From an uncultured Eubacteriales bacterium (lineage in GTDB: Bacteria > Acidobacteriota > Aminicenantia > Aminicenantales > Saccharicenantaceae), in NCBI GenBank assembly GCA_964607985.1, contig CAZSMW010000465.1, positions 1 to 44,791 on the forward strand: DNA of 44,791 nt, read 5' to 3'. Below the pieces are notes generated by a model that was given only the letters and a program-made list of their open reading frames with translations, had not been told where the DNA came from and did not search any database. The translations under genes were made by a program, and so were the position numbers. Shown piece by piece: positions 2,834 through 40,307 of the stretch (position 1 is the first letter of the stretch; the number at the start of each line of letters is the position of its first letter).

Positions 2834-2937
2834 AATCGTACTTTACAAATCAGGTGAAAAATCCCGGCGCTTGTCTTATAATAGGGCTCCGTTGAGACCG
2901 TTTCCTGCCATTTCAAATCTTTGTTTAAGGGTGGTGC

Positions 2938-23095: not shown

Positions 23096-24676
23096 CTATC
23101 CTTTTAATATGCTGTCGACCTCGTCCTTATCGACATCCATGATGTAATGGATTCCGCTGATCCGAGCGGCGTCCTGGGTCAGGGCGGCGATATCGCCCCG
23201 GGTGATGTATTCGAGCGCGAATTTGCGTTCCCCGGCCATCATCTGCCGAAGACCCTGGCTCAGCCGTTTGAAATAGGTGTAGACGCCTATCGCGCCGGTG
23301 GGAAGATCGTTGAACCGTGTTTTATACTTCAGCTTGAGCTCGGGCGCCGTAACGAAAATCTCCTCAGCCGAGCTGCCGAAGCGCTCGACGTAGACCGGGA
23401 TCTGTCCGTCCTTGACCCGGCTGCCGATGGTCTTGCCGACCATGGCCGCGGCCATGGGGCTGCGGGCCATTCCGATCGCCTTGACGTAGGGCGCGCCGAG
23501 GGCCAGGGCCTTGAAGATCTGGTCCTCGAAGGTGATTCCGCCGGCGAAGGCGATGTCCGGGACGTACTCGCCGGCCTTGGCCAGCCGGTCGGCGTAGTTA
23601 TAGGTCAGCGACCAGATCTCGACGCTCGGGATGCCCCACTCGTTCATCATCCGCCAGGGGCTCATCCCCGTGCCGCCGCCGGCCCCGTCCACGGTCAGGA
23701 AGTCGATCTTCGCCTTTGAGGCGAACTTCACGGCCCGGGCCAGGTCGGCGGGCCTGTAAGCCCCCGTCTTGAGGAAAACGTACTTGGCGCCGGCCTTTCG
23801 GAGCGCTTCGACACGCTTCATGAAGCCCTCTTCCTCGACCATTCCCAGGCGGGAATGACGCTCGAACTCCTTGAAGCTTCCCTTCTCGAAGGCCTGGATG
23901 ACGTTCGGCTCCTCGGGATCCGGCAGGACGATATAGCCTCGCTTCTTGAGCTCCTGGGCCTTCTTGAGGCTCTTGATCTTGACCTCGCCGCCGATGTCCT
24001 TTGCCCCCTGACCCCATTTCAGCTCGACGATCTCGATGCCTAGCTTTTCGATGGCATATTCCTGGACGCCGAGTCGCGTGTCTTCGACATTGGCCTGGAC
24101 GACGACGGCGCCGTAGCCGTCGTCCTGCCAGTCCTTGAAGCTTCGAATCCGGAACTCCATATCCGGGGAGCGGACGACCCGGCCACTCTTGAACTCGGAG
24201 CCCTCGTCCATGCCGCAGACGTTCTCGCCGATCGTCAAGATGGTTCCGGAGATGGCCGCTCCCGCGGCCAGCCCTTCCCAGTTTTGTTTGGCCACGTTGG
24301 TCGAGCCCATGCCGCCCAAAACGAAGGGCACGCGGAGCTTGATGGCCTTGTTGCGGCCGATCCGGGTCTCTATTTCAACCTTCTCGAAAGTGGCCTTATC
24401 CGAATCGGCTTCGACGCCCCAGGCGCCCGCGGCCGTCCCCATGATGCTGAAGTGGGACAGGTCCACCGGATATTCTTTTTCCGACGCAGCCGTGATGATC
24501 CCGAAGGGTTGGGGATAGAGGACCTCGGCCCCGCGGTAGGCCGATTTCCCGATCTCGCACATGCCGATGCATCCGTCGACACAGGTCACGCACATCCCGC
24601 TGAACGGGCTGATGGACCCCTCGGTCCGGTTCTTGGTCAAAGTTGCCGCGCTCCTGTTGAGCCTCGTGTAAGACAT
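23096..24676 (-). CDS. glutamate-synthase-related FMN-binding protein (GltB central domain only)
   Basis: 526 aa. VPFVLGGMG, ELKWGQGAKDIGGE, TVDGAGGGTGMSP and IAFAGGI blocks match the GltB FMN/TIM-barrel domain. N-terminal Cys cluster CVTCVDGCIGMC. No amidotransferase domain and no GXGXG C-terminal domain. AGGAGG lies 8 nt before the ATG. Confidence 0.8.
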   Translation of the reverse strand: MSYTRLNRSAATLTKNRTEGSISPFSGMCVTCVDGCIGMCEIGKSAYRGAEVLYPQPFGIITAASEKEYPVDLSHFSIMGTAAGAWGVEADSDKATFEKVEIETRIGRNKAIKLRVPFVLGGMGSTNVAKQNWEGLAAGAAISGTILTIGENVCGMDEGSEFKSGRVVRSPDMEFRIRSFKDWQDDGYGAVVVQANVEDTRLGVQEYAIEKLGIEIVELKWGQGAKDIGGEVKIKSLKKAQELKKRGYIVLPDPEEPNVIQAFEKGSFKEFERHSRLGMVEEEGFMKRVEALRKAGAKYVFLKTGAYRPADLARAVKFASKAKIDFLTVDGAGGGTGMSPWRMMNEWGIPSVEIWSLTYNYADRLAKAGEYVPDIAFAGGITFEDQIFKALALGAPYVKAIGMARSPMAAAMVGKTIGSRVKDGQIPVYVERFGSSAEEIFVTAPELKLKYKTRFNDLPTGAIGVYTYFKRLSQGLRQMMAGERKFALEYITRGDIAALTQDAARISGIHYIMDVDKDEVDSILKG

Positions 24677-24737
24677 GATTCGTTACCTCCTTGTCATCTC
24701 TTTCTTTAGATTCCTATATCCCATGGTTAGGTGAAAA

Positions 24738-25418
24738 CTACTTTTTTTCCTGGACGCAGGTGCCGCACCGCCCGGCGTCGTACATCCAGCACTGAAGCTC
24801 ATCGTAGTGGTCCAGACAGCTGGGGTCCATCGTCAGGCAGGCATTGCATACGGGCGTCTCGGCGTTCGGCCCCTGGCAGCGGAGCGAACAAGCCGGGCAG
24901 ATGTAGATGCAGGCGCCGCACAGCCGGCATTCCTCGGACTTGATGTCGAAAGGCGTCGAGATCTTCCGCTTGTGGCCGCGGTTCTGGAAACCGATCGCCC
25001 GGGCGTCCATCTGCTCATCGCAAATCCGAATGCAGAGGCCGCAGGAGACGCACTCCTCGTTGCGCGGTTTGAACCGCTGCTGTGTCACACCGAACTTTGA
25101 GGCCAGGTCCTGGATCTCCTTGGAATAGGGGGCCGTCGAGAGCATGAGCTCGATCATCATCCGTCGCGATTCGATGACGCGCCGCGTGTCCGTCCGGACG
25201 ATCAGGCCCCTTTCTACCGTGCGCGTGCAGGAGCTGACGAGCTTCGATGCCGGCTCCTTTCCGATCTCGACCAGGCAGAGCCGGCACCCCCCGTATGGGG
25301 CCAGCCCCTCGTTCCAGCAGAGCGTCGGGATCTCGAGCCCGTAGAACTTGGCCGCTTCGAGGATGGTCCAACCCTCCTCGGCCTGAACCTCCAAACCGTT
25401 CAAGATGAATGGGATCAT
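24738..25418 (-). CDS. 2Fe-2S plus 2x[4Fe-4S] iron-sulfur protein, NuoG/HydA N-terminal-like, with no catalytic domain
   Basis: 226 aa. Plant-type 2Fe-2S pattern LCWNEGLAPYGGCRLCLVEI...SSC. Two ferredoxin motifs, CVSCGLCIRIC and CRLCGACIYICP. An additional Cys-rich C-terminus. No H-cluster motifs. ATGA overlap with the upstream NuoF-GltD stop. Confidence 0.8.
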   Translation of the reverse strand: MIPFILNGLEVQAEEGWTILEAAKFYGLEIPTLCWNEGLAPYGGCRLCLVEIGKEPASKLVSSCTRTVERGLIVRTDTRRVIESRRMMIELMLSTAPYSKEIQDLASKFGVTQQRFKPRNEECVSCGLCIRICDEQMDARAIGFQNRGHKRKISTPFDIKSEECRLCGACIYICPACSLRCQGPNAETPVCNACLTMDPSCLDHYDELQCWMYDAGRCGTCVQEKK

Positions 25419-28400
25419 TTTGTCCTTCCTGTGGATATCTTGCCGTCCTCGGTTTGCAGATCACACCGCAGGCAGCGCCTCGCCTCCTGGACGGCCATCT
25501 CCTCGGTCAAGCCCATCTCGACCTCCTTGAAGTTCTTCCTCCGCTGGGAGACGGAGAGGTGTTTCATCTTAGGCCTCCTGGCTTTATCCACCTCCTCTTC
25601 TCCGAGCATTTCCGGCGCGACGTACATCGAAGGCCGGGTGAGAGGATACTCGCGGCGGAGGGGCCGCCCGCCGGCATATTTCTCGATGGTTTCGGCGGCA
25701 AGCTTTCCGGCGGCCATGGCCTCGATAACGGTACGCGGACCGGTAACGGCGTCACCGCCGGCAAAAACTCCATCCCACGTCGTCATGGCTGTCTCCCCGT
25801 CGATGACGATATTCTCCCGGTCCCTGCGGATGCCGTCCGCCTCGACGATATATGAGGTGTCGGGCCGCTCGCTGATCGCCAGGATGAGCGTATCGAGCGA
25901 AGTGGTGAAATTGGATCCCTCGATGGGCACCGGCCTCGGGCGGCCGCTCGCGTCTTTCTCGCCGAGCTTCATGCGGACGCATTCGATGGCGACCGCCTTC
26001 CCGTTCTTCGTGACAACCTTTACCGGCGCCACGAGGAACTGGATATCTATGCCCTCGTCGATGGCGGCATCGACCTCTTCGGCCAACGCCGGCATCTCGG
26101 CCTTGGTCCGCCGGTAGAAGATCGCCACGTTCTCGCAGTTCTTATCGCGAAGGGCGGCACGGGCGGCGTCGATGGCCGAGTTCCCTCCTCCTACGACGCA
26201 CACCCGCTTGCCGATCGGGACTTTCTTGCCGAGATTCAACTCTCTCAGGTACTCCACGGAGTGGAGAACCCCCCCGGCATCTTCCCCGGGAATGCCCATC
26301 AGCATGGACTTGCCTGCCCCCGTGGCGCAAAATACGGAGTGGTAGCCGGACTTGAATAACCCCTCGATGGTGATATCCCGGCCCATGATGATGCCGGTCC
26401 GGATCTCGACGCCGGCAGCCTTGATCCTCTCGATCTCTTTGTCGATGACGGGCTTCGGCAGACGATGGTCGGGGATCCCTACGGCCAACATTCCGCCCGC
26501 AACCGGCAGCGCCTCGAAGATCGTCGGCCGGAAGCCCTTTCTGGCGAGGAAATAGCCGGCCGCTAATCCCGACGGCCCGGCGCCGATGATCGCGATCCTC
26601 TCCCGGTTCTGTTCGACGGGCTCCGGAATATAGTTGATGCCGTTCCGGTCCGCCCAATCCATGACGAATCGTTTGAGGCTGCGGATGGAGATGGGGTCTC
26701 CCGTTTCGCCGGCCGCGCAGACCTTCTCGCAGGGATGGTGGCAGACCCGGCCGCAGACCGAAGGCAGAGGATTGTCCTTCATGATGACCCGGAAGGCCTC
26801 CTCGAAGTTCCTCTGGGCGATGAGGGCGATGTAGGTCGAAGCCTCCTGGTCAATGGGGCACGCGTATTGGCAAGGAGACGACACGAGCTCCTTGCAGACC
26901 ATGGCCGGGCACCTTTTCAGCTTGATGTGGGCTTCATACTCGTCCCGGAAATAACGGAGGGTGGAGAGGATCGGATTGGCGGCCGTTTGTCCCAAACCGC
27001 ACAAGGAGGCGTCCTTGACCACTTTGGCCAGCTCTTCGAGGAGAGCCAGGTCCTTCTCCTTTGCCTGGCCTTCCGTGATGTCCTTGAGGATCTCCCACAT
27101 TCTTTGCGTTCCCTCCCGACAGGAGAGGCACTTGCCGCAGGATTCGTCGCGGAGGAAGTTGAGGAAATATTTGGCCAGGTCAACCATGCAGGTCTTGTCG
27201 TCCAAGACGATCATGCCGCCCGAACCCATCATGGCCCCGGCCCCGGTCAGGCTTTCGTAATCGACGGGTAGATCAAGGAGTTTGGCGGGGATACAGCCGC
27301 CCGAAGGGCCGCCGATCTGGATGGCCTTGAATTCCCTGTCCTGGGGAATGCCGCCGCCGATGCCGTAAACGATGTCCCGGAGCGTGATTCCCATCGGAAC
27401 TTCGACCAGCCCCGTGTTGTTGATCTTGCCGACGAGGGAGAAGATCTTCGTCCCTTTGCTCGTTTCCGTCCCGAGGCTCGCAAGCCACTGGCCACCGCGG
27501 CGGATGATATTCGGGACGGTGGCCCAGGTCTCGACATTGTTGATCACTGTCGGCTTTCCCCAGAGACCCTTTTGGGCGGGGTAGGGAGGTCTTTGCCGGG
27601 GCGTCGCGATCCGCCCTTCCACGGAGGCGATCAGGGCGGTCTCTTCTCCGGAGACGAAGGCCCCGGCGCCCTGGACGATTTCGATATCGAAATCGAATCC
27701 CGTCCCAAGGATGTCCTTTCCGAGCAGGCCGTATTCCTGCGCCTGGCGGATGGCGATGTCGACGCGCTCGATCGCCAGGGGGTATTCGTTCCGGATGTAG
27801 ATGAATCCCTTCTCGGCGCCGATCGCTTTGGCCCCGATGACCATTCCTTCGAGAACAGCGTGGGGATCGGCCTCAAGAACGGAACGGTCCATGAACGCGC
27901 CCGGATCCCCCTCGTCGCCGTTACAGATGATGTATTTGGGCGTCGCCGTTTCTTTACGGCAGGATTCCCATTTCTTACCCGTGGGGAATCCGGCGCCGCC
28001 TCTCCCGCGGAGCCCGGAGGCGCTGATTTCGGCGATGACCTCCTCCGGGGTCATCTCCGCCAGAACCTTGGCCATGGCCTCATAGCCATCGAAGCCGATG
28101 TAGTCGTCGATCTTTTCGGGGTCGATGCGGCCGCGGTTCCGGAGGACGATGAGCCGTTGGTGCTTGAAGAACGCGATGTCCTTCATTTTGGGGATCGGCT
28201 CTTCCTCCTTGGGCGGGATGTACATGAATTTTTTTACCGGTCTCCCTTTGAGAAGATGCTCTTCGACGAGGAGGGGGACGTCTTCGACCTTGAGCTGCTG
28301 ATAGAAGATGCCTTCCGGCTGAACCAAGAGAATGGGGCCCCTCTCGCAAAATCCGTTGCATCCCGTAGCGATGACCAGGACCTCATCCTGAAGGTTCCGT

Positions 28401-28501
28401 TTCCGGACCTCCTTTTCGAGGGCCTCTTTGATCTTGAAGGACCCGCAGGAAACACATCCGGTGCCGGCGCAGATTAATAAGTGAGCTCGATATTGTTTCA
28501 A
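25415..28501 (-). CDS. fusion protein: thioredoxin-like 2Fe-2S domain + NuoF/HydB-like NADH-FMN module + GltD/NfnB-like FAD-NAD(P)H module
   Basis: ORF 25415..28534. Start preferred at TTG 28501, where GAAGGGGGAccc lies just upstream and immediately after the previous stop. Domains in order: HLLICAGTGC...ATGCNGFC (2Fe-2S), GLRGRGGAGFPTGKKW (FMN/NADH), ESCGKCLSCREG (N3-type 4Fe-4S). Then SSPCQYACP and CGRVCHHPCEKVC (GltD-type clusters), IAIIGAGPSGLAAG (FAD) and VCVVGGGNSAIDAAR (NAD(P)H). Confidence 0.85.
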   Translation of the reverse strand: MKQYRAHLLICAGTGCVSCGSFKIKEALEKEVRKRNLQDEVLVIATGCNGFCERGPILLVQPEGIFYQQLKVEDVPLLVEEHLLKGRPVKKFMYIPPKEEEPIPKMKDIAFFKHQRLIVLRNRGRIDPEKIDDYIGFDGYEAMAKVLAEMTPEEVIAEISASGLRGRGGAGFPTGKKWESCRKETATPKYIICNGDEGDPGAFMDRSVLEADPHAVLEGMVIGAKAIGAEKGFIYIRNEYPLAIERVDIAIRQAQEYGLLGKDILGTGFDFDIEIVQGAGAFVSGEETALIASVEGRIATPRQRPPYPAQKGLWGKPTVINNVETWATVPNIIRRGGQWLASLGTETSKGTKIFSLVGKINNTGLVEVPMGITLRDIVYGIGGGIPQDREFKAIQIGGPSGGCIPAKLLDLPVDYESLTGAGAMMGSGGMIVLDDKTCMVDLAKYFLNFLRDESCGKCLSCREGTQRMWEILKDITEGQAKEKDLALLEELAKVVKDASLCGLGQTAANPILSTLRYFRDEYEAHIKLKRCPAMVCKELVSSPCQYACPIDQEASTYIALIAQRNFEEAFRVIMKDNPLPSVCGRVCHHPCEKVCAAGETGDPISIRSLKRFVMDWADRNGINYIPEPVEQNRERIAIIGAGPSGLAAGYFLARKGFRPTIFEALPVAGGMLAVGIPDHRLPKPVIDKEIERIKAAGVEIRTGIIMGRDITIEGLFKSGYHSVFCATGAGKSMLMGIPGEDAGGVLHSVEYLRELNLGKKVPIGKRVCVVGGGNSAIDAARAALRDKNCENVAIFYRRTKAEMPALAEEVDAAIDEGIDIQFLVAPVKVVTKNGKAVAIECVRMKLGEKDASGRPRPVPIEGSNFTTSLDTLILAISERPDTSYIVEADGIRRDRENIVIDGETAMTTWDGVFAGGDAVTGPRTVIEAMAAGKLAAETIEKYAGGRPLRREYPLTRPSMYVAPEMLGEEEVDKARRPKMKHLSVSQRRKNFKEVEMGLTEEMAVQEARRCLRCDLQTEDGKISTGRTK

Positions 28502-28511
28502 GGGTCCCCCT

Positions 28512-28904
28512 TCAATATAAAGTTTCGCTTCCAACCGCCAGGGCGTATTCGGTCGCCGGCCGGCCGCCCAGGACGTGTTTGACCAAGATCTTCCGCATCT
28601 TCGTCGGAGTGAGATCGAAATACTTGACCGGCGGCTGGTCTTTGAGCTCGACCGTGGCCATCGGCTCCCGGTTGCACAGCCCCGCGCAGCCGGATGTCGT
28701 CACGATCACGTCCTTGGCCTTCTTTTTCTTCATCTCGTCCAGGAGGGCGTCCATGATCTCGCGGGCGCCCGCCGCGATCCCGCACGTGCCCATATGGACC
28801 GTGACCTTGGCCCGGCCCCGGCCCTCCCGGATGGTCGATAAGCTCCTGGTTTTTTCCCGGATTTTCGCCAAGTCCTGGATACGGAGTTTTTTCTTTTCTG
28901 CCAT
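28512..28904 (-). CDS. thioredoxin-like [2Fe-2S] ferredoxin (HydD-like small subunit)
   Basis: 130 aa. VTVHMGTCGIAAGAREI...TTSGCAGLCNREP is the thioredoxin-like 2Fe-2S pattern. Confidence 0.8.
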   Translation of the reverse strand: MAEKKKLRIQDLAKIREKTRSLSTIREGRGRAKVTVHMGTCGIAAGAREIMDALLDEMKKKKAKDVIVTTSGCAGLCNREPMATVELKDQPPVKYFDLTPTKMRKILVKHVLGGRPATEYALAVGSETLY

Positions 28905-28979
28905 CAGCTTTCCTTTCCTTCGATCGTGTTCTTCTGATTCTCCTCGGGCCGGTTTGAAGAGGCGTTAGGACCGCCCCGG

Positions 28980-29498
28980 TCAGGGGGTTGCGCTTCTTGA
29001 CGATCTTGATTTCTGCGTTCTTGCTCCTCTTCTTCGGGGTTTCCGATACTTGTTCAAAATCGTTCCGACTTTCCGGACGGTAGCGTGACCGTGGTATTCC
29101 TTGTCGATGACGACGACGGGTCCGATGGCGCAGCAGCCGAGACAGGCGAGGGTCTCCAGGGTGAATTGGCCGTCTTTGGTCGTTTCACCGGCGCGGACGT
29201 CGAGCTGCCGTTCGAACTCATCCAGAATCTTCGGTCCGCCCCGGACATGACAGGCCGTCCCCAGGCAAACCAAGCACGTGTGTTTGCCGCGGGGGGTGAG
29301 GCTGAAAGCGCGGAAGAATGTGGCGACGCCGATGGCGTCGATTAGAGGAATCCCGAGCCCGCTCGCGACCAGACGGAGGGATTCCGGAGGAAGATAATTG
29401 TAGGCGGCTTGGATATCAAGAAGAATGGCGATGAGGTTCTTTTTTAGACTCTTGTGTGACTTGATGATGGATTGGATTTTTTCTTTCTTGATGACCAA
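28980..29498 (-). CDS. NuoE/HydC-like 24-kDa-type [2Fe-2S] subunit
   Basis: ORF 28980..29519. Start preferred at TTG 29498, with GGAGGG 6 nt upstream. LIAILLDIQAAYNYLP...CLGTACHVRG...LACLGCCAIGPVV is the NuoE signature. Confidence 0.85.
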   Translation of the reverse strand: MVIKKEKIQSIIKSHKSLKKNLIAILLDIQAAYNYLPPESLRLVASGLGIPLIDAIGVATFFRAFSLTPRGKHTCLVCLGTACHVRGGPKILDEFERQLDVRAGETTKDGQFTLETLACLGCCAIGPVVVIDKEYHGHATVRKVGTILNKYRKPRRRGARTQKSRSSRSATP

Positions 29499-29705
29499 TG
29501 CAATCCCTCCAAAATGCAAAATTGAACTCTGGGCGAATGGATAGATCGGTGCGGTTCAGGGAAGCCGTCCCCGCGGGTTCTGAGGGGGACGTCCTGCCGA
29601 GGGAGATGGGACATGAGCGCCGTTCGCGGGCCGACGATACGACCGGCATGGGTGATGCCGCGCTCTCGACCTTGATAATCTCGTGCATGTAAAAATAAGA
29701 CGTCA

Positions 29706-29735
29706 TATATATCAGAATAAATTTGCGTTTGTCAA
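29706..29735 (-). promoter_or_regulatory. internal sigma70-type promoter (TTGACA-17/18-ATATAT/TATATA) ahead of a leader of about 200 nt for the nuoE-like operon
   Basis: On the minus strand, TTGACA is at 29735..29730, directly after the HATPase gene stop (29740). An AT-rich -10 lies at 29712..29706. The start codon of the nuoE-like gene is at 29498. Confidence 0.5.
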
Positions 29736-29739
29736 GCCA

Positions 29740-30285
29740 TTAAGTTCTTCCGATCGCGCGCAGGCCGGTTCGAAGCGTTTTATCGATCCGTCCGATGAGA
29801 ACCGGGTCCGTCCATGAAGCCTGCCCGGATTTCCGGAAAAAACGGCGGCTCGCGAATCTGAAGACCCGTCCGTTCCGAAGGTGGCAATAGCGGAAATCGA
29901 TCTCGGGGTGGCCGAAGACGAGGACCATCATCGTCCCCCTCATGTTTGTCAGGGGCGGCCGGTCGATGTGGCCATGACGGAAACGCGCCGCGACCCTGGC
30001 CCCTTTCATGGGACCTGTCGTGATGGTCAGGTCCCCGCCGCACAGCTCGGCCGTCTGGGTCAGGAGCGGGAGTCCGAGGCCGGTCCGTTTTCCTTTCGTC
30101 GTGAAGAACGGGTCGAGGGCACGTCGCAGGGCTTCGGGCGCGAATCCCGGTCCGTTGTCCGACACCCGGATAGCCAGGAGATCGCGACCTTCGTTCTCGT
30201 TGATGGTCACGGTGATCCGAGTCGCTCCGGCCGTAATCGCGTTCTCCGCGATATCAAGGATGTGGAGGGACAGGTCTTCCATCAT
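29740..30285 (-). CDS. HATPase_c-domain ATP-binding protein (kinase-like, no HisKA domain)
   Basis: 181 aa. N-box HILDIAENAI, G1 SDNGPGF, G2 GLGLPL. ATGA overlap with the PHP gene stop. Confidence 0.75.
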   Translation of the reverse strand: MMEDLSLHILDIAENAITAGATRITVTINENEGRDLLAIRVSDNGPGFAPEALRRALDPFFTTKGKRTGLGLPLLTQTAELCGGDLTITTGPMKGARVAARFRHGHIDRPPLTNMRGTMMVLVFGHPEIDFRYCHLRNGRVFRFASRRFFRKSGQASWTDPVLIGRIDKTLRTGLRAIGRT

Positions 30286-31028
30286 GATTCCCTGATCCTC
30301 CTTCCGTCCGTTCCCTTCAAGGCCAGCCGGATCTCGTCCAGAAGAGGGGACGCGAGAAGGAAACCGGTTGTTGTCTTGCCGATCTCCTCCGGCCGATGGG
30401 CGTCGGAAAAACGGACCAGCGGGAGATGGGCCCAGGCCTCGCCGGCCGCCCGGGCCCCGGCGATCGTCACCCTGGGGGAAACCTCCAAGGCGTCGAGTTC
30501 CAAGTCGGGAGGCATGAAACCCAGCTGAGAGATCAGCCCGAAAGCCTCCCGGTCGATGTGCGAGGCGATCGCAAGTCCGCCGTGACGGTGGACGAGTTCG
30601 ACGATCTCATAGACGTCGAGTTGCGTCGCGGCCAGGAGACAGTGCGGACTAAAGCCCATCACTTCATCATCCTCGTTGACGATCACCTGATCCTCGATGA
30701 ACTTTTTTTTCGAGGCGACCTCGGGAAGTTTTCGGAAAACCTCCTCCTGCAGGGGGAGGACGTCGTCCATGCTTTCAAAAAGGCCCAGGATGTGGACTTC
30801 TTCTTCGGACGTAAGCTCCATTCCGGGAAGGACCGCCAGCCCCGTTCCCGCCGCAGCCCGGATCGCCGCCGCCGCGTTTTCCGCGGTGTTATGATCGCAT
30901 AGGGCGATGATGTCCAGCCCTTCCGCGAGGGCTTGCTTGACGATACGGCGCGGAGACATCGTCAATTCCCCGCACGGCGAGAGGCAGGAATGAATGTGGA
31001 GGTCGGCCCGGAAGCGCCTGAGCGCCAT
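30282..31028 (-). CDS. PHP-domain phosphoesterase
   Basis: ORF 30282..31070 trimmed to ATG 31028, which overlaps the upstream stop as TAATG. ADLHIHSCLSPCG...ALCDHNT...SHIDR...SDAH are the PHP metal-binding motifs. Confidence 0.8.
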   Translation of the reverse strand: MALRRFRADLHIHSCLSPCGELTMSPRRIVKQALAEGLDIIALCDHNTAENAAAAIRAAAGTGLAVLPGMELTSEEEVHILGLFESMDDVLPLQEEVFRKLPEVASKKKFIEDQVIVNEDDEVMGFSPHCLLAATQLDVYEIVELVHRHGGLAIASHIDREAFGLISQLGFMPPDLELDALEVSPRVTIAGARAAGEAWAHLPLVRFSDAHRPEEIGKTTTGFLLASPLLDEIRLALKGTDGRRIRES

Positions 31029-31369
31029 TAATGTCCTTGGATCCCCAGTCCATAAAGTCTTCCCACGCATTCAAAAGCGCTGAGAGGGCTTCCGAGGATG
31101 GGAATCCGTTCTTTTTCCGCCCGTTCGACGGTTTCCGCGGAGGGTTCGCGTCCGTTGACGAGAAGGACCGCCGCCAGATCCTTGAGGACGGCGACCGCGA
31201 CGATGTTCGGATGGACCTGGAGGGTGACCCAGAGATCGTCTTTCCGGCCGTGGGCGATGACATCGCTCAAAAGATCGCTTGCGTAGCCGCCGCCGATCGA
31301 CCGGGACAGGTCCTTCCCTCCCGTATGGATCTTGAGGTCGAGCCTTTCAACAAGCTCCTTGAGATTCAT
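31028..31369 (-). CDS. DRTGG-domain protein (second copy)
   Basis: ORF 31028..31462 trimmed to ATG 31369 (AAGGAGGAcccATG, ATGA overlap with the HydS-like stop). GGGYASDLLSDVIAHGRKDDLWVTLQVHPNIVAVAVL is typical of DRTGG proteins in hydrogenase-sensor clusters. Confidence 0.75.
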   Translation of the reverse strand: MNLKELVERLDLKIHTGGKDLSRSIGGGYASDLLSDVIAHGRKDDLWVTLQVHPNIVAVAVLKDLAAVLLVNGREPSAETVERAEKERIPILGSPLSAFECVGRLYGLGIQGH

Positions 31370-32640
31370 GGGTCCTCCTTCTTTATGAACGGACAGTCGG
31401 CGAGGTTCGCCGTGCCGCGAACGACGTCTTCGGCGAGTGTCCGGCAATCCGGGGCGCCGCAAGCCCCGCAGTCCTTATGCGGCAGCTGCCTGAAGAGCTT
31501 GTTCCGCTTCCGGGCCTTTTGAATGGCCCGGGCCCGGTCGGCGTCAAGGGGAGGAGTTCCCACAGGCATCACCGGATGGTGGAAGGACAGGAAATCCTCG
31601 TTATAGAGGAGGTTCATGTCGGTTTGGTTGATGATGGTCCGCTCTCCCATCGCGCTGACCAGGCGAAGGATCCGGCTTTTTGCCAGGAAGCGATTCTCAA
31701 TGGCCAACGGGCCTCCCACGCAGCCGTCGGGACAGACCATGCATTCAAGCAGGTCCACGTCCTTGAGAAGCCCCGATTCGACCTGGTCCAGGACGCGGAT
31801 GGTGTCCCGGACTCCCGAGACGGCGACGGTTCGATGGTTTTTCAACCCGCGCGTCTCTCCTCCCGAGAGCGCCGTGCCCAGACCCATCCCGCTGAAGAGG
31901 ATCTCCGGGAAGAGATGACACATGATCGTGTCTTCCTGGCTTTGCCGGAGGGCCTGAAGGATCGGTCCATAGATGTCCCGGATCGAAATGGCGCCGTTGA
32001 GATAGGACCTATCCATCGTGGCCGGGCGATTGATCGAAACCATTTTCGCGGGACAGGGAGTGATGTGGATGATCCCGATTTCGGCCGGCGGCATTTTGAG
32101 CACCCGGGGAAGTGTCGTTCTCAGGATTTTGGCGGCGATCTCACGAGGCGGTTCGATGGGGGCGATCAGTTCGCAGAGCGAGGGATAACGGCGCTGGATG
32201 AGGCGGACGACCACGGGGCACGTCGAGGCGATGAGCGGGCGGGGCTTGTGGTGGTCGTTGAGGTATTTCTCGATGGCGGCATTGTTGAGCTCGCAGATCG
32301 TGCTGAGTTCGTAAACATAGTCAAACCCGACCCGGCGCAGGGCGAAGAGGATCTCACTGGGAAGGGTGACGTTGTCGAATTGCCCGTAGAGGACCGTCGC
32401 CGGGATGGCGACCTTATACTTGAAGGCGCTAAGGTCCGAGAACGATGTCGTGCGGGCTTCTATGGCGTCGTGGGGACAAAAGCGGATGCATTCCCCGCAG
32501 TCGATGCAAAGCTCGCTGATGATCCGGGCCTTGCCGTCCTTGATGCGGATGGCCTTCGTCGGGCAGGAGGTCAGGCAATGGACGCAGCCGATGCACTTCT
32601 CGGCGGTGACATGCAGCGAAGGGAGAGGATTTTCAATCAT
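31366..32640 (-). CDS. sensory-type [FeFe]-hydrogenase homologue (HydS/HfsB-like) with 2x[4Fe-4S] N-domain and RnfB-type C-terminal Fe-S motif
   Basis: 424 aa. N-terminus CIGCVHCLTSCP and CIDCGECIRFCP. H-cluster motifs are LIASTCPVV (variant of TSCCP), ITPCPAKM (MPCxxK) and ECMVCPDGCVGGP (ExMxCxxGCxxG). C-terminus CGACGAPDC-x16-CP. Confidence 0.85.
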   Translation of the reverse strand: MIENPLPSLHVTAEKCIGCVHCLTSCPTKAIRIKDGKARIISELCIDCGECIRFCPHDAIEARTTSFSDLSAFKYKVAIPATVLYGQFDNVTLPSEILFALRRVGFDYVYELSTICELNNAAIEKYLNDHHKPRPLIASTCPVVVRLIQRRYPSLCELIAPIEPPREIAAKILRTTLPRVLKMPPAEIGIIHITPCPAKMVSINRPATMDRSYLNGAISIRDIYGPILQALRQSQEDTIMCHLFPEILFSGMGLGTALSGGETRGLKNHRTVAVSGVRDTIRVLDQVESGLLKDVDLLECMVCPDGCVGGPLAIENRFLAKSRILRLVSAMGERTIINQTDMNLLYNEDFLSFHHPVMPVGTPPLDADRARAIQKARKRNKLFRQLPHKDCGACGAPDCRTLAEDVVRGTANLADCPFIKKEDP

Positions 32641-33083
32641 TCCAGCCTCTGTCCGTTCGTCAGGATCGTTATCTCAAGCCTTGTCCCGCGGTCCGGATCG
32701 GAAATGATCCGGAAATCATCGGAATTTTTTTTGATGTTGGGAAGTCCCATGCCGGCCCCGAACCCTAGCTCCCGCATTTCCTCTGTTGCCGTCGAGTAGC
32801 CCTCCCGCATGGCGAGATCGACGTTTTCGATGCCGGGGCCCCGATCTTCGACGATGATCCGTATCTTTTGCGGGGTGATGAGGAGGTCGACTTGCCCCTC
32901 CCAGGCATACATGATGACGTTCATCTCAGCTTCATAGGCGGCGATGGCGACGCGGCGGACGACCTGGGAGTTGAGTCCGAGCTCCTTCAAGAGATTTTTG
33001 ATCTCGCAGGACACCTTGCCCGCCCCGGTGAAGTCCCCTCCCTTGATCAGAAAGTCCTGCTGGAAAGAGGCGTCTTCTTTCAT
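32637..33083 (-). CDS. anti-sigma-factor-like serine kinase (RsbW/SpoIIAB-type HATPase)
   Basis: ORF 32637..33353 trimmed to ATG 33083 (ATGA overlap with the upstream stop). AIAAYEAEMNVIMYA...IVEDRGPGI...GFGAGMGLPNI is the GHKL kinase pattern of partner-switching kinases. Confidence 0.75.
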   Translation of the reverse strand: MKEDASFQQDFLIKGGDFTGAGKVSCEIKNLLKELGLNSQVVRRVAIAAYEAEMNVIMYAWEGQVDLLITPQKIRIIVEDRGPGIENVDLAMREGYSTATEEMRELGFGAGMGLPNIKKNSDDFRIISDPDRGTRLEITILTNGQRLE

Positions 33084-33430
33084 CGGGCGCGTTCCGGAAA
33101 GGACTGAGCGAGCCTCGAGCATGCCTCGAACATGCTCAATCCCGTCGAAATGACGGGCAGGTTTTTCTCCCTGGCCTCGTCGACGACCTTCATGTCCGGC
33201 CTTTTTCCCTGAACAAAAACAATGGCCGTGACGTCCGTCAGACAGGCGGTGCGGACCGCATGGCAATGGATCAGGCCGGTTAACAGGACGGAACCGGGAT
33301 TGATGAAGGTCAAGACGTCGCTCATCAAATCCGAGGCGAAAATCCCCGGGCATTCGATCCCGATATCCATCTCCGGCGTCAGCAATTCTCCGTCGACCAG
33401 CGCCAGGATGTCTTTCAGAGTCATCGTCAT
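33080..33430 (-). CDS. DRTGG-domain protein (first copy)
   Basis: ORF 33080..33670 trimmed to ATG 33430 (MTMTLKDILALVDGELLTPE...). ASDLMSDVLTFINPGSVLLTGL...AIVFVQGKRP is the DRTGG pattern. Confidence 0.7.
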   Translation of the reverse strand: MTMTLKDILALVDGELLTPEMDIGIECPGIFASDLMSDVLTFINPGSVLLTGLIHCHAVRTACLTDVTAIVFVQGKRPDMKVVDEAREKNLPVISTGLSMFEACSRLAQSFPERAR

Positions 33431-33473
33431 GCTGCGGCGGAAAAGAGGCTCTTTTTCTCGTCCGCCGCTTCCT

Positions 33474-33502
33474 ATTATATTAGGTTCGAGGACGTCAAGC
33501 AA
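33474..33502 (-). promoter_or_regulatory. sigma70-type promoter TTGCTT-17-TATAAT of the sensory operon
   Basis: On the minus strand, TTGCTT is at 33502..33497, followed by a 17-nt spacer and TATAAT at 33479..33474. The inverted repeat GCGGCGGA-N19-TCCGCCGC (33468..33434) lies between the -10 and the ATG at 33430. Confidence 0.6.
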
Positions 33503-33512
33503 CTGAACTTGT

Positions 33513-33541
33513 CCTAAAATTGCCGATAGGATTCTTTCTTC
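33513..33541 (-). repeat. intergenic repeat copy B (GAAGAAAGAATCCTATCGGCAATTTTAGG on the minus strand)
   Basis: The reverse complement of 33516..33541 is identical to 5282..5307. The copy lies 10 nt upstream of the -35 of the sensory-operon promoter. Confidence 0.9.
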
Positions 33542-33551
33542 AGACTCACGT

Positions 33552-33569
33552 CTTATCGGCGATTTGGGG
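33552..33569 (+). repeat. degenerate repeat copy D (CTTATCGGCGATTTGGGG), inverted partner of copy B
   Basis: 15 of 18 positions match CCTATCGGCAATTTTGGG. It is in the opposite orientation to copy B, 21 nt away, and the two form an imperfect inverted repeat. Confidence 0.6.
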
Positions 33570-33589
33570 TGGAAGAACGAGACACGTGA

Positions 33590-33620
33590 GGAAAAAGAGC
33601 TAGACAGGCTAGCCTGTCTA
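33590..33620 (-). terminator. intrinsic terminator of glnA (20-bp perfect palindrome plus U-tract)
   Basis: TAGACAGGCTAGCCTGTCTA (33601..33620) is a perfect palindrome. On the minus strand it is followed by GCTCTTTTTCC. It lies 213 nt downstream of the glnA stop. Confidence 0.65.
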
Positions 33621-33833
33621 ACCTGTCCAATACGAACGCAACAAAGAAAGTTACAATGTATGAACGGCACTGAATGCCGTCCTCAAGCCCCCGTAGCGGA
33701 GGGGGGACCCGTCGGCTTTTTCGACGGGGGGAACCGACGGGACTGGTTCCCTGGGGGGCCGGGGGAGTGAGGGCGGCTTCAGGCCGCTTAAAGTCAGATG
33801 TCAAACTATTCAATGCGTTTGTATTAGCCCTTC

Positions 33834-35240
33834 TTATAGAAACGGCAGATATTTCTTGATCTCATATTCGCTGACCTGCTTGTCGAATTCCCCGGAGACA
33901 TTCCGGTTGTATTCCTCGATCTCCTGCCGCTTATTGGCCAGGAACCGGGAGAAGATGTGGCCGCCCAGGATGTCTTTCATGAGATCGCTCTTTTCCATGA
34001 TCCTGGTGGCTTCGCCGAGGTCCCGCGGCAGAGTCCCAATCTCGAACTTCCGCTGGCGCGAAGGGCTCATCTCATAGATGTTCTCTTCGACAGGAGCGGG
34101 AAGAACGCCCCCTTCCTTAATCCCGCTTAGGCCGGCGGAGAACATGACGGCCAGGGCGAGATAGATATTGCATCCGGGGTCGGGGCAGCGGAGTTCGATG
34201 CGTGTCGCGTGTTCCTTCCCCGGCTGGTACTCGGGGACCCGGATGTATGCCGACCTGTTCTTCTGGCCCCAGGCCACATAGACCGGAGCTTCATAACCTT
34301 CGATGAGCCGCTTGTAGGAGTTCACCCATTGGCTGAGGACGGCCGACATCTCCCGGGCGTGGGTCATCAATCCGGCCATGTATGACCGGGCGGTCCCCGA
34401 AAGATGGTAGGGGCCTTTCGGGTCAAAGAACACGTTCTTCCCTTTCTTCCAGAGAGACTGGTGGACGTGCATGCCGCTTCCGTTGATGCCGTTGATGGGC
34501 TTGGGCATGAACGTGGCATAGAGCCCGTGCATGCGGGCGACCTTCTTCACCATGTAACGGAAGAGCATGGCCGAATCGGCCATCTCCAGGGCCGTCGTGT
34601 ACTTGAGGTCGATCTCGTGCTGGCTGGGAGCGTTCTCGTGGTGGTCGAACTCGGACTCGATCCCCATGTTCTTGAGATGGAGCTGGATCTCCTTGCGAAG
34701 CTCTCCGTGCCGGCCGCTGAAGAAGTAGCCGCCCTCGTCCGTGAGGGTGGCCTCTTTGTCGCTCGGAAAGATGAAGAACTCGAGCTCGGGCCCGCACTTG
34801 AAATCCTCGATGCCGAATTCTTGCTTCCCCTTGTGCAGGGCTTTCTTGAGGACCCGGCGGGAGTCCCCCTCGTAGGGCACGCCGTCGGGGGTCAGGATGT
34901 CGCCGAAAAGGATCGCCTCCCGCCAGCGGACCTGGTCATCGAATCCCTTGTATTCCCAGGGCAGGACCCTGAAGGTCGAAGGGTCGGGCTTGATGATGAG
35001 GTCGCTCTCCTCGATCCGGACAAACCCCTCGACGGATGAGCCGTCGAACCCTTTGCCTTCCCGGAAGGCCTTGCCGAGCTCCGAGCCGGGGAAGGCGAAG
35101 TCCATGGGCCGTCCGAGGATGTCCGGGAACATGACCCGGACGAACTCTATGCCGTTACCCGGGTCGAGGATGATGTCCAGAACCTCTTTCTCGGTTTGGC
35201 AGCCGAAGCTCTTGAACGTGCCCCTGGTTTTCTCGGTCAT
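33834..35240 (-). CDS. glnA: glutamine synthetase, type I
   Basis: 468 aa. GFDGSS, GPELEFF, HHE.A.QHEID, NGSGMH.H.S, YEAP and IE.R.PD are canonical GSI blocks. GAGGAG lies 6 nt before the ATG at 35240. Confidence 0.93.
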   Translation of the reverse strand: MTEKTRGTFKSFGCQTEKEVLDIILDPGNGIEFVRVMFPDILGRPMDFAFPGSELGKAFREGKGFDGSSVEGFVRIEESDLIIKPDPSTFRVLPWEYKGFDDQVRWREAILFGDILTPDGVPYEGDSRRVLKKALHKGKQEFGIEDFKCGPELEFFIFPSDKEATLTDEGGYFFSGRHGELRKEIQLHLKNMGIESEFDHHENAPSQHEIDLKYTTALEMADSAMLFRYMVKKVARMHGLYATFMPKPINGINGSGMHVHQSLWKKGKNVFFDPKGPYHLSGTARSYMAGLMTHAREMSAVLSQWVNSYKRLIEGYEAPVYVAWGQKNRSAYIRVPEYQPGKEHATRIELRCPDPGCNIYLALAVMFSAGLSGIKEGGVLPAPVEENIYEMSPSRQRKFEIGTLPRDLGEATRIMEKSDLMKDILGGHIFSRFLANKRQEIEEYNRNVSGEFDKQVSEYEIKKYLPFL

Positions 35241-35262
35241 ATCAGCTCCTCTTTGAATACAA

Positions 35263-35291
35263 AGATTATCAGCGTTCCATCATGCCGTCAA
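35263..35291 (-). promoter_or_regulatory. sigma70-type promoter TTGACG-17-TAATCT of glnA
   Basis: On the minus strand, TTGACG is at 35291..35286, followed by a 17-nt spacer and TAATCT at 35268..35263. Repeat copy C ends 2 nt upstream of the -35. Confidence 0.5.
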
Positions 35292-35293
35292 GG

Positions 35294-35310
35294 CCCAAAA
35301 TTGCCGATAG
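35294..35310 (-). repeat. intergenic repeat copy C (CTATCGGCAATTTTGGG on the minus strand)
   Basis: The reverse complement of 35294..35310 is identical to 5294..5310. Confidence 0.85.
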
Positions 35311-35328
35311 ATGCCGGGAATTCATTTC

Positions 35329-35357
35329 TTGACAGATCCAGCGGTTGTGCCATAATC
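35329..35357 (+). promoter_or_regulatory. sigma70-type promoter TTGACA-17-ATAATC of speD
   Basis: TTGACA at 35329..35334, a 17-nt spacer, ATAATC at 35352..35357. GAGGAG lies 6 nt before the ATG at 35385. Confidence 0.5.
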
Positions 35358-35384
35358 AATTTACCTTCAATCGAGGAGAAAAAA

Positions 35385-35834
35385 ATGACCAAGACGGTCC
35401 ATCCTTCGATCGGTCATCATTATATCGTCGAAGCCTCCGGCTGCGATCCCAACGTCATCGGAAGCGTGGAGAAGGTCCAGCAGATCCTGGTCAAGGCCGC
35501 CGAGATTGCCGGCGCCCATGTCTGGTCGATCTCTTTCAACCGCTTCCCTCCGAACGGCGTCAGCGGCGTCGTCGTCATCTCGGAATCCCACATCTCCACC
35601 CACACCTGGCCGGAGTTCGGCTACGGGGCCCTTGATATCTACACGTGCGGAAACAACATCGACCCGGAGAAGGCGGTCATTTTCGCGGTCGGGGCCTTCG
35701 GGGCCTCGACGTCCCATATCACGGAGATCACGCGGGGCATCGACGAAGGGGACTGCATCTTCTATCACAGCTTCGTGACCTGGGAAGAGTATCTCAAGAA
35801 AGAGGGAATCAAGAAGGAGGAGGCCAAGCCGTGA
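35385..35834 (+). CDS. speD: S-adenosylmethionine decarboxylase proenzyme (pyruvoyl type)
   Basis: ORF 35196..35834 trimmed to ATG 35385. 149 aa. HYIVEASGC...VVVISESHISTHTWPE contains the Glu-Ser self-cleavage site. Confidence 0.85.
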   Translation: MTKTVHPSIGHHYIVEASGCDPNVIGSVEKVQQILVKAAEIAGAHVWSISFNRFPPNGVSGVVVISESHISTHTWPEFGYGALDIYTCGNNIDPEKAVIFAVGAFGASTSHITEITRGIDEGDCIFYHSFVTWEEYLKKEGIKKEEAKP

Positions 35835-40305: not shown

Positions 40306-40307
40306 GG

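Follow-up and report, generated by a model that had tools for sequence, protein, structure and literature searches.

To our knowledge, TamHydS of Thermoanaerobacter mathranii is the only characterised group D [FeFe]-hydrogenase, and the "sensory" label derives mainly from a hydrogenase-adjacent position. Group D function has been called undefined or putative in the literature of 2024 to 2026, and the TamHydS gene lies upstream of a group A3 HydABC hydrogenase (PMC8163306, PMC13104023). Published third substrates of the HydABC-like, electron-bifurcating Bfu family comprise H2, formate, NADPH, F420, CO, pyruvate, aldehydes, quinone, H2O2 and benzoyl-CoA, with no amino-acid or nitrogen reaction among them, and no glutamate-related Bfu is listed in the paper of Schut et al. 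or its supplement (PMC9304861). The present analysis concerns a 44,791-nucleotide stretch of DNA from an uncultured Aminicenantales bacterium (contig CAZSMW010000465.1; hereafter the window, 44.8 kb), in which a group D HydS-like gene and five partner genes (the cassette) lie between glnA and an operon encoding a Bfu core together with a GltB2-like FMN protein (GltBl). Neither a "Glt-Bfu" nor a group D cassette on a non-hydrogenase Bfu was found in the literature, of which much of the relevant older part was not searchable.

Our preferred reading, which we rate at about an even chance of being correct, is of a type-2 Bfu complex resembling WorABCSL that feeds a glutamate synthase of the GltB2 type, with a BfuBC-associated HydS module alongside. 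It is built on gene content, conservation of domains and motifs, promoters, and synteny across phyla. Every gene named in the original prediction was recovered in place, and always on the minus strand, by an open reading frame listing combined with Pfam and NCBIfam scans of the window:

35240–33834, minus strand: glnA, type I glutamine synthetase (GS), 468 amino acids (Gln-synt_N and Gln-synt_C; TIGR00653, 457 bits against a cutoff of 429)
33430–33080, minus strand: DRTGG protein 1, 116 amino acids (PF07085, E = 6.6e-07)
33083–32637, minus strand: small RsbW/SpoIIAB-like HATPase_c_2/HATPase_c protein, 148 amino acids (PF13581, 33.3 bits; PF02518, 34.4 bits)
32640–31366, minus strand: group D/M2e [FeFe]-hydrogenase-like protein ("HydS"), 424 amino acids (Fe_hyd_lg_C, E = 4.8e-26; PF04060 FeS)
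31369–31028, minus strand: DRTGG protein 2, 113 amino acids (PF07085, E = 2.1e-05; weak Hpr_kinase_N match)
31028–30282, minus strand: PHP-family metal-dependent phosphoesterase, 248 amino acids from the MALRRF start (PF02811 and PHP_C)
30285–29740, minus strand: HATPase_c protein without HisKA, 181 amino acids (PF02518, E = 1e-17)
29519–28980, minus strand: BfuC/HydC, NuoE-like [2Fe-2S] subunit, ∼172–179 amino acids (PF01257 2Fe-2S_thioredx, E = 1.2e-45; HoxE/NuoE in NCBIfam)
28904–28512, minus strand: HydD-like thioredoxin-fold [2Fe-2S] ferredoxin, 130 amino acids (partial PF01257; NF041612)
28534–25415, minus strand: NuoF–GltD fusion (BfuB/HydB), 1039 amino acids (N-terminal [2Fe-2S], Complex1_51K, SLBB, NADH_4Fe-4S, Fer4_20, Pyr_redox_2)
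25418–24738, minus strand: Fe-S-only BfuA, 226 amino acids (Fer2_4, Fer4_7; [2Fe-2S], two [4Fe-4S] and a Cys-rich tail)
24676–23096, minus strand: GltBl, GltB2-like FMN protein, 526 amino acids (PF01645 Glu_synthase, 65.2 bits against a cutoff of 20.4)

The nearest relatives of the 424-residue protein are annotated as Candidatus Aminicenantes (Acidobacteriota). The predicted absence of an H-cluster catalytic subunit was confirmed: Pfam and tblastn detected no second H-domain or HydA-like open reading frame anywhere in the window, and no HydA adjoins the cassette in 80 related loci. By the same two approaches, maturases were absent from the window, as were the amidotransferase and GXGXG parts of glutamate synthase; the remainder of the window holds housekeeping genes, transporters and one two-component system.

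The Bfu core and the GltB-like protein

The NuoE-like and NuoF-like genes are of the bifurcating Bfu kind, as had been proposed, the first by its match to PF01257 and the second by an end-to-end alignment of fusion residues 15–552 with subunit B of the A. mobile NiFe-Bfu (7t2r_B, E = 1e-235). Residues 1–552 of the fusion constitute the NuoF-like BfuB, and residues 553–1039 a GltD/NfnB-like module for two [4Fe-4S] clusters, FAD and NAD(P)H. The BfuB part shares ∼65% identity with bifurcating BfuB subunits of known structure and keeps the extra N-terminal [2Fe-2S] motif (CxGTGC...CxGxC) as well as ESCGKC..C...LCGLG; its best PDB matches were all bifurcating Bfu subunits (HydB, NfnB, StnB and WorB), ahead of respiratory NuoF. 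Beyond residue 552, where the BfuB alignment ends, the canonical C-terminal two-[4Fe-4S] domain is replaced by the Fer4_20 dicluster of GltD, and unfused relatives retain the canonical domain. The best PDB matches of residues 553–1025 were the GltD-like module of StnC/NfnA (9bov_A, 8oh5_C, 9n5u_A). The described Nfn-Bfu/Stn enzymes (NfnABC of Caldicellulosiruptor and Thermococcus, StnABC of Sporomusa; PMC7483475, PMC10482914, PMC11829005) likewise join BfuBC to a GltD/NfnB FAD-NADP(H) module. In those enzymes, however, the module is inserted in BfuA after the [2Fe-2S] domain and BfuA keeps a large C-terminal domain, whereas in the window the module sits on the C terminus of BfuB and not in BfuA, BfuA is truncated, and a GltB-like protein is added; half of the relatives do without the module. 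The NuoF–GltD fusion had been presented as one of three departures. It exists in the window as predicted. For archaeal hybrid hydrogenases, however, a GltA-like domain has been noted in HydB (PMC11216029), and taken by itself such a fusion is no novelty.

The 226-residue BfuA has one [2Fe-2S] and two [4Fe-4S] motifs, no match to NADH-G_4Fe-4S_3 (the His-ligated cluster), and WorA of WorABCSL as its best PDB match (9mqx_A, 247 residues). WorA is a truncated BfuA that serves in WorABCSL as an adaptor docking extra catalytic subunits (PMC12318220). Because BfuA is WorA-like, the locus looks like a type-2 Bfu in the Schut classification (PMC9304861) with the 526-residue protein as the added subunit. 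Both systems combine a BfuBC core with a small BfuA (∼230–250 residues) without the C-terminal alpha/beta/alpha domain, and the NuoF part has WorB among its best matches (PDB 9MQX). They differ in the extra module, which is WorSL in the one and a Glu_synthase-family FMN protein in the other, and in the BfuB of the window, where GltD stands in for the C-terminal ferredoxin domain. BfuA ends in a Cys-rich tail of ∼45 residues (CQGPNAETPVCNACLTMDPSCLDHYDELQCWMYDAGRCGTC) outside the Pfam domains (window 25415–25418 and 24738–24676), which, by analogy with the zinc-finger/adaptor helix of WorA, could bind a further cluster or zinc and form a docking site.

GltBl contains an N-terminal Cys cluster (C29, C32, C36, C40) and the motifs KWGQGAKDIGGE and DGAGGGTGMSPW. 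In family alignments C29, C32 and C40 are near-invariant, C36 is usual, and KWGQGAK.IGGE and DGAGGGTGMSPW are family motifs; we take the latter two to resemble the QGAKPGEGG and DGxxGGTGASP motifs of GltB. The protein is the most conserved of the locus, at 80–97% identity within Aminicenantes and 72–74% to WOR-3, and the 130-residue ferredoxin is 62–81% identical across loci. Only 1105 relatives were found at E <= 1e-3 among 1.84 billion cluster representatives (50% identity), and the GltBl family is therefore small and distinct. An AlphaFold2 model has an FMN-type TIM barrel (predicted local distance difference test, 71). Archaeal-type glutamate synthase is split into GltB1, GltB2 and GltB3. 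GltBl shares with these subunits and with GltBD the PF01645 FMN family and the QGAK..GGE and DG.GGTG.SP motifs, and the GltBD likeness extends to a GltD-type partner (fused in the window, a neighbour in some metagenome loci) and to nearby glnA, P-II, NrpR and glutamate dehydrogenase (GDH) genes. In contrast to GltB, GltBl has neither an amidotransferase nor a GXGXG domain, its N-terminal Cx2Cx3Cx3C stands against an internal [3Fe-4S] motif, and its electron input apparently comes from the Bfu module.

The assembly of these proteins into a complex, its substrate and the direction of electron flow are proposed from these likenesses as follows. The BfuBC core (the NuoE-like subunit and the NuoF-like subunit with its extra [2Fe-2S]) and the HydD-like ferredoxin would exchange electrons with NADH and ferredoxin, the GltD/NfnB module on the C terminus of BfuB would bring in NADP(H) as a further donor or acceptor, as in Nfn/Stn or GltBD, and the truncated WorA-like BfuA would act as an Fe-S adaptor wiring the core to the N-terminal cluster and FMN of GltBl. 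GltBl would replace the hydrogenase domain as the "third-substrate" site and most likely convert 2-oxoglutarate through 2-iminoglutarate to glutamate, with nitrogen from ammonia or a separately supplied amide. The whole complex would then be an NADH/ferredoxin(/NADPH)-linked glutamate synthase alongside GS and GDH. The 2-oxoglutarate/NH4+/glutamate couple is far more positive than NADH; hence either NADH and reduced ferredoxin would both serve as donors, or NADH would drive ferredoxin reduction, two options between which sequence cannot decide.

Cassette loci across phyla and their transcription units

One genome per GTDB species was scanned with a HydS alignment, and the resulting 80 loci were mapped by tblastn with the window proteins. 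About 60 of the 80 belong to Aminicenantes and the rest to WOR-3, KSB1, Gemmatimonadota, Edwardsbacteria and unnamed lineages; 67 were long enough to judge. Complete chromosomes with the system are OY969696.1, OY970122.1, CP070686.1 and CP070802.1. A NuoE–ferredoxin–NuoF(+/-GltD)–BfuA–GltBl operon adjoins the cassette in 50 of these 67, and the pairing of cassette and GltBl flavoenzyme that the original prediction rested on is thus conserved across Aminicenantes, WOR-3 and other phyla. The loci were distributed as follows:

operon adjacent, GltD fused: 19 loci
operon adjacent, GltD absent (unfused): 21 loci
operon adjacent, nuoF out of view: 10 loci
NuoE–(cassette)–ferredoxin–NuoF–(773-residue molybdopterin-type BfuA)–NfnA–NfnB, by Pfam: 6 loci
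cassette with no Bfu genes within 9–10 kb: 9 loci
NuoF seen, rest out of view: 2 loci
contig too short to judge: 13 loci
HydA adjacent: 0 loci

With the NuoF–GltD fusion present in 19 loci and absent from 21, the "three departures" from hydrogenase operons that had been predicted (no HydA, the fusion, and a GltB-like last gene) do not form one fixed design. Three arrangements occur in Aminicenantes, namely glnA–cassette–operon as in the window, operon–cassette, and glnA–cassette alone. In WOR-3 and relatives the order is GDH–NuoE–(cassette)–ferredoxin–NuoF~GltD–BfuA–GltBl with short gaps, which places the cassette inside the operon. The 181-residue HATPase_c protein is the counterpart of the "hisK" gene of Bfu operons, and the WOR-3 order is the canonical HydC–hisK–HydD–HydB order with five further cassette genes inserted after nuoE (compared with Schut 2022, PMC9304861). 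HydABC(D) operons with hisK and hydD, such as that of the A. mobile NiFe-HydABCSL, thus share NuoE, HATPase_c, the small [2Fe-2S] ferredoxin, NuoF and BfuA with these loci, and their order is kept exactly in WOR-3. In the window, by contrast, the third-substrate module is not a hydrogenase, and the HATPase_c gene stays with the cassette, upstream of the operon promoter. No other observation ties the cassette to the BfuBC core as strongly as its position inside the WOR-3 operon.

The six loci of molybdopterin type (L036, L038, L039, L067, L073 and L078) encode a BfuA of 773–776 residues resembling NuoG and formate dehydrogenase, followed by NfnA (PyrK-like) and NfnB; with their operon, this HydS clade has a second type of Bfu partner that lacks a hydrogenase. 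Since the clade never lies beside a hydrogenase but lies beside or inside other BfuBC operons, the BfuBC core or redox homeostasis is indicated as its target. The best explanation is that the cassette accompanies BfuBC cores in general: HydABC in the known case, and here GltBl-type and molybdopterin/Nfn-type Bfu.

An assembly chimera or one-off arrangement was considered and rejected, since locus L003 is 96% identical and synteny extends to dozens of species. In four loci (L027, L031, L058 and L060) the tblastn matches to NuoF, BfuA, GltBl and HydS are split into frame-shifted pieces, more likely through indels of long-read assembly than through pseudogene formation.

Translational coupling of the six cassette genes, as predicted, was evident from junction overlaps of 4, 4, 4, 1 and 4 nucleotides. 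The start of the 148-residue HATPase gene overlaps the stop of DRTGG protein 1 in an ATGA junction (relatives are called at 147–149 residues), and the BfuA start overlaps the NuoF–GltD stop in the same manner. The glnA–cassette gap measures 403 nucleotides and the cassette–nuoE spacer 220 nucleotides, and the two gaps contain the following signals:

33630–33598, minus strand: terminator-like hairpin with an 11–13-bp stem, then the T-run CTCTTTTTCC (consensus scan; pattern match only)
33502–33474, minus strand: promoter-like TTGCTT-17-TATAAT of the cassette, ∼45 nucleotides upstream of its first gene (TATAAT box at 33479–33474)
29735–29707, minus strand: sigma-70-type promoter TTGACA-17-(TG)ATATAT of the NuoE-to-GltBl operon, conserved

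The operon promoter is invariant in 8 species, the remaining leader being ∼52% identical; the spacer that had been predicted to carry its own promoter measures 220 rather than 240 nucleotides. The TATAAT box upstream of the cassette recurs in relatives whether glnA or the flavoenzyme operon is upstream, and relatives of the latter arrangement have a T-run hairpin 3' of the GltB-like gene. Because a terminator-like hairpin and a TATAAT box occupy the 403-nucleotide gap, glnA is a neighbour of the cassette and not demonstrably part of the same operon. The proposal that glnA heads the cassette operon was rejected, as the hairpin and the conserved -10 box intervene and most relatives have the flavoenzyme operon upstream. 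What stands of the predicted link is adjacency, which is confined to one Aminicenantes subclade. Rfam found no riboswitch or known RNA element at family threshold in the whole window, including two long leaders.

Several observations weigh against a Bfu complex that feeds a glutamate synthase. The assignment of GltBl to Glu_synthase is remote: the best PF01645 stretch covers residues 279–408 and profile positions 185–308 only, similarity to canonical GltB was too low for phmmer, no NCBIfam model matched, and neither the protein nor the family profile had a real match in the PDB, where only designed TIM barrels were returned. Foldseek against the PDB retrieved generic FMN TIM barrels (lactate/glycolate oxidases and IMPDH, TM ∼0.35) for the model, a result that supports the FMN fold class without discriminating the substrate. 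No amidotransferase (GATase_2) or GXGXG domain was detected by Pfam in GltBl or the neighbouring genes; the GltB FMN-domain protein predicted for the end of the operon is upheld by a partial PF01645 match. GltD in place of the C-terminal domain of BfuB alters a feature that Bfu enzymes are described as keeping invariant. The purified Bfu holoenzyme of A. mobile contained neither the hisK nor the hydD product (PMC9304861), which fits an accessory role. The cassette of Aminicenantes is separately transcribed, with glnA, cassette and flavoenzyme operon as three neighbouring units, and the nine loci with a cassette and no Bfu genes are the main evidence against an exclusive cassette–Bfu link. Finally, GltBl as a Bfu subunit is a prediction for a gene that elsewhere usually stands alone: distant GltB-like genes (∼50–70% identical) are mostly stand-alone, in Firmicutes (Calderihabitans), Nitrospirota, Planctomycetes and 80 metagenome loci.

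The stand-alone genes of those three phyla and of most metagenome loci also favour a different arrangement, which we consider unlikely. The Bfu module of the window would be a self-contained Nfn/Stn-type transhydrogenase (NADH + reduced ferredoxin + 2 NADP+ <-> NAD+ + oxidised ferredoxin + 2 NADPH) with GltD moved from BfuA to BfuB, and GltBl an independent ferredoxin- or NADPH-dependent glutamate synthase that is simply co-transcribed. The closest relatives of the GltD part, in the GltD-like module of StnC/NfnA, and the translationally uncoupled 61-nucleotide gap between bfuA and the GltBl gene are consistent with such a transhydrogenase. Against it stand the 21 species with the same operon and no GltD, in which no candidate third-substrate site besides GltBl was found, and in which BfuABC would be left without a third substrate unless GltBl provides one. 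The BfuA–GltBl order is moreover kept across phyla, and it is as adaptors for additional catalytic subunits that small BfuA proteins of the WorA kind serve.

The HydS-like protein and the cassette output

M2e/group D proteins are described as having an H-domain, two [4Fe-4S] clusters and a C-terminal Cx2Cx4Cx16C motif, no PAS domain, no Cys299, and Ser or Thr for Met353 (PMC8163306). The 424-residue protein displays this entire set, in agreement with the HydS-type identity predicted for it. Two N-terminal [4Fe-4S] motifs are followed by the H-domain motifs ASTCP (139), TPCPAK (194) and ECMVCPDGCVGG (299), the C-terminal motif (CGACGAPDC-x16-C) starts at residue 391, no PAS domain was matched by Pfam, and Thr occupies both the Cys299 proton-relay position (ASTCP) and the Met353 position (TPCPAK). 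In alignments to solved [FeFe]-hydrogenases all four H-cluster ligand cysteines are present, with STCP, PCPAK and MVCPDGC facing TSCCP, MPCTCK and MTCPEGC of HydA2 in 7qv7; Lys199 is presumably the counterpart of K358 in CpI numbering. The H-cluster cysteines were invariant in a 17-sequence alignment and across 77 loci, a result in which motifs L2 and L3 are the scan patterns themselves and only L1 and the C-terminal motif are independent checks. Cx2Cx4Cx16C is present in 73 of 77 relatives, and the Cys299 position is never Cys in the 77 species, being mostly Thr with occasional Val, Ile, Met, Ala or Ser.

TamHydS agrees with the window protein in its two [4Fe-4S] clusters, H-domain, Cx2Cx4Cx16C and lack of PAS, in the missing Cys299, and in a hydroxyl residue for Met353 (PMC8163306, PMC13104023). 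The two differ at the Met497 position (Met in the window protein, Leu in TamHydS) and in context: group A3 HydABC, the usual company of group D genes, is replaced in the window and the 80 loci by a GltB-like or molybdopterin/Nfn Bfu and GS/GDH genes.

Occupancy of the H-cluster would follow from this conservation in the preferred reading of a HydS module beside a Bfu-fed glutamate synthase. It is quite improbable, in our estimate, that the 424-residue protein lacks the [2Fe] subcluster and is an Fe-S sensor of redox, O2 or NO, or a plain electron-transfer protein. Such a role would agree with the absence of a catalytic hydrogenase nearby, with the putative standing of the sensory role even for TamHydS, and, weakly, with the absence of a maturase in the window or in 1.4 Mb of related loci, where the scan used a HydF-only expression (CxHx(40-58)HCxxC) that is uninformative. 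The four cysteines, Lys199 and the surrounding motifs are, however, invariant across ∼77 species, which is hard to explain without the cofactor, and a HisKA-fused HydS-like domain occurs in some of the same genomes.

A catalytic role, in which the protein feeds or vents the H2 electrons of the Bfu in the manner of the separate HytA of FdhFeFe-Bfu and the complex is an H2-linked glutamate synthase or transhydrogenase, appears very improbable. No member of the clade has the proton-relay cysteine, the gene always has as neighbours the kinase-like, DRTGG and PHP genes typical of signalling, and it forms a separate transcription unit in Aminicenantes and also occurs in cassettes without any Bfu genes. 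These observations are set against N-terminal two-[4Fe-4S] relay clusters like those of catalytic M2 enzymes, the reversible though slow catalysis of TamHydS (PMC8163306), the precedent of an H-cluster subunit separate from BfuA (Schut 2022, PMC9304861), and the position of the gene inside the operon in WOR-3.

The other cassette proteins bear on the output. No DNA-binding domain was detected by Pfam in the cassette proteins, as the original prediction had stated. DRTGG proteins 1 and 2 are 31% identical, and DRTGG domains occur in nucleotide-regulated enzymes. The nearest solved relatives of the PHP protein are pAp/oligonucleotide phosphoesterases of TrpH/YciV type; nucleotide phosphoesterases were its only PDB matches, a result that weakens a reading as protein phosphatase. 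The small HATPase protein had no PDB sequence match, and of the components of RsbW/SpoIIAB partner switching its HATPase_c_2 match (33 bits) was the only one found, with neither a STAS-domain substrate nor a PP2C phosphatase. The cassette is thus reminiscent of RsbW/SpoIIAB modules in combining a small HATPase_c_2 protein, small putative partners and a phosphoesterase without a DNA-binding output domain, but it differs in its partners, which are DRTGG proteins and a PHP protein whose solved relatives hydrolyse nucleotides rather than phosphoproteins. Because of the resemblance of PHP to nucleotide phosphoesterases, the occurrence of DRTGG in nucleotide-regulated enzymes and the lack of a DNA-binding domain, a nucleotide-based or protein–protein output is at least as likely as Ser/Thr phosphorylation.

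The cassette would accordingly be placed as a sensor of H2 or of a low-potential redox state that acts post-translationally or through a nucleotide signal, by way of the RsbW-like ATPase/kinase, DRTGG, PHP and HATPase_c proteins, on the Bfu complex or on glutamate metabolism. The earlier claim that it had been recruited to control the flavoenzyme according to H2 status was overstated: the pairing is conserved, and control by H2 is what we infer from it. More tentatively still, and with considerable doubt, the HydS cassette may be no regulator of hydrogenases but a general H2/low-potential-redox governor of the BfuBC core that gates a hitherto unrecognised "Glt-Bfu" with 2-oxoglutarate and ammonia as third substrate, so that ammonium assimilation or glutamate catabolism would be switched by H2 pressure and the ferredoxin/NADH state in Aminicenantes, WOR-3 and allied phyla.

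Two further forms of HydS-like protein were observed. In L019:2063-4150(-), L056:~2282-4357(-) and L082:2904-4889(+), a distant set of HydS-like domains (25–27% identical) is joined with HisKA and HATPase_c in a protein of 695 amino acids with two [4Fe-4S], H-domain and FeS motifs, and response-regulator genes follow it; this is a putative histidine-kinase-fused H2 sensor in the same genomes as the cassette. L067:6213-8614 and L073:2012-4579 each hold a tandem second copy of the front half of the cassette (DRTGG–DRTGG–HATPase–HydS-like, 34–35% identical), placed immediately before NuoE and the complete cassette.

Nitrogen and glutamate genes around the cassette and GltBl

GDH or glnA genes are found beside the cassette also in loci that lack Bfu genes. 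In four WOR-3-type loci an ELFV-type GDH gene immediately precedes nuoE; such genes also occur between GltBl and the cassette in L076, after the cassette in L057, and directly upstream of a Bfu-less cassette in L079. Bfu-less cassettes have gdhA and a GDH2 N-terminal-domain gene on their flanks in L019, L056 and L029, in L026 and L054 glnA adjoins a cassette with no Bfu genes, and in L072 an NfnAB fusion precedes the cassette. These loci would suit a cassette that regulates glutamate and nitrogen metabolism in general (GS, GDH and GltB-like enzymes) with Bfu adjacency secondary. Such a role is improbable in view of the WOR-3-type loci, where nuoE precedes the cassette and the ferredoxin and nuoF genes follow it, and of the six loci that pair it with a molybdopterin-type BfuA and NfnAB and no glutamate genes; published group D genes also lie upstream of HydABC hydrogenases, and the HATPase_c "hisK" is a regular Bfu operon member.

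Among 85 mapped loci of GltB-like genes, an NrpR gene is a neighbour in 17, gdhA/GDH in ∼13, and glnA, NadE or P-II in several. This company supports, at the level of sequence context, a glutamate-synthase-like role of the GltBl family in nitrogen assimilation. GltB-like genes sometimes follow NfnA–GltD pairs or NuoE–NuoF–BfuA without a cassette, and these contexts, together with the stand-alone genes, make the Bfu module one of several solutions to electron input. The predicted nitrogen/glutamate link is thereby sustained as gene context (GDH, glnA, NrpR, P-II and NadE, and in other phyla), with the adjacency of glnA itself lineage-specific.

The NrpR-type repressor genes (PF01995), seen at L086:6467-7447(-) and in 17 of the 85 GltB-like loci (L088–L167), lie beside stand-alone GltB-like genes on metagenome contigs of bacteria and suggest 2-oxoglutarate-responsive control of the GltBl family. 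Tandem GltB-like paralogues were found at L120:2562-9378 and L160:8001-11338 (∼69% and 50%, and ∼51% and 57%, identical to the window protein); those of L120 stand directly after NuoE–NuoF–BfuA, and the 2.5 kb upstream contains no cassette. Calderihabitans maritimus, a Firmicute in culture, has a response-regulator/ANTAR antiterminator gene (L083:9140-9739(+)) directly upstream of a stand-alone GltB-like gene (68% identical), and is a tractable organism for the function of the GltBl family.

The surroundings of the locus hold further regulators. At 38917–43148 on the minus strand, the window encodes a sigma-54 NtrC-type response regulator and a 946-residue PDZ/7TM/GAF/PAS histidine kinase, which hold the same position relative to glnA in L001 and L002 and may serve the region as a two-component system for nitrogen or redox. 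An AsnC/Lrp-family regulator gene is divergent from glnA at L001:7066-7509(-) and L002:7030-7473(-) and is missing from window positions 35240–35400; the glnA of the window abuts an AdoMet-decarboxylase gene.

Loci with and without Bfu genes, and those with fused and unfused GltD, form natural comparison sets. Should GltBl turn out to be just a co-transcribed neighbour, the finding would be reduced to an Nfn-type variant and a new stand-alone glutamate-synthase-like family. The pairing of the cassette with a GltB-like flavoenzyme in dozens of uncultured species hints that nitrogen assimilation is tied to the H2 or redox state of the cell. If the preferred reading is true, a glutamate-synthase-type Bfu would provide a direct connection from electron bifurcation to the assimilation of nitrogen in uncultured bacteria that are abundant in sediments and digesters.

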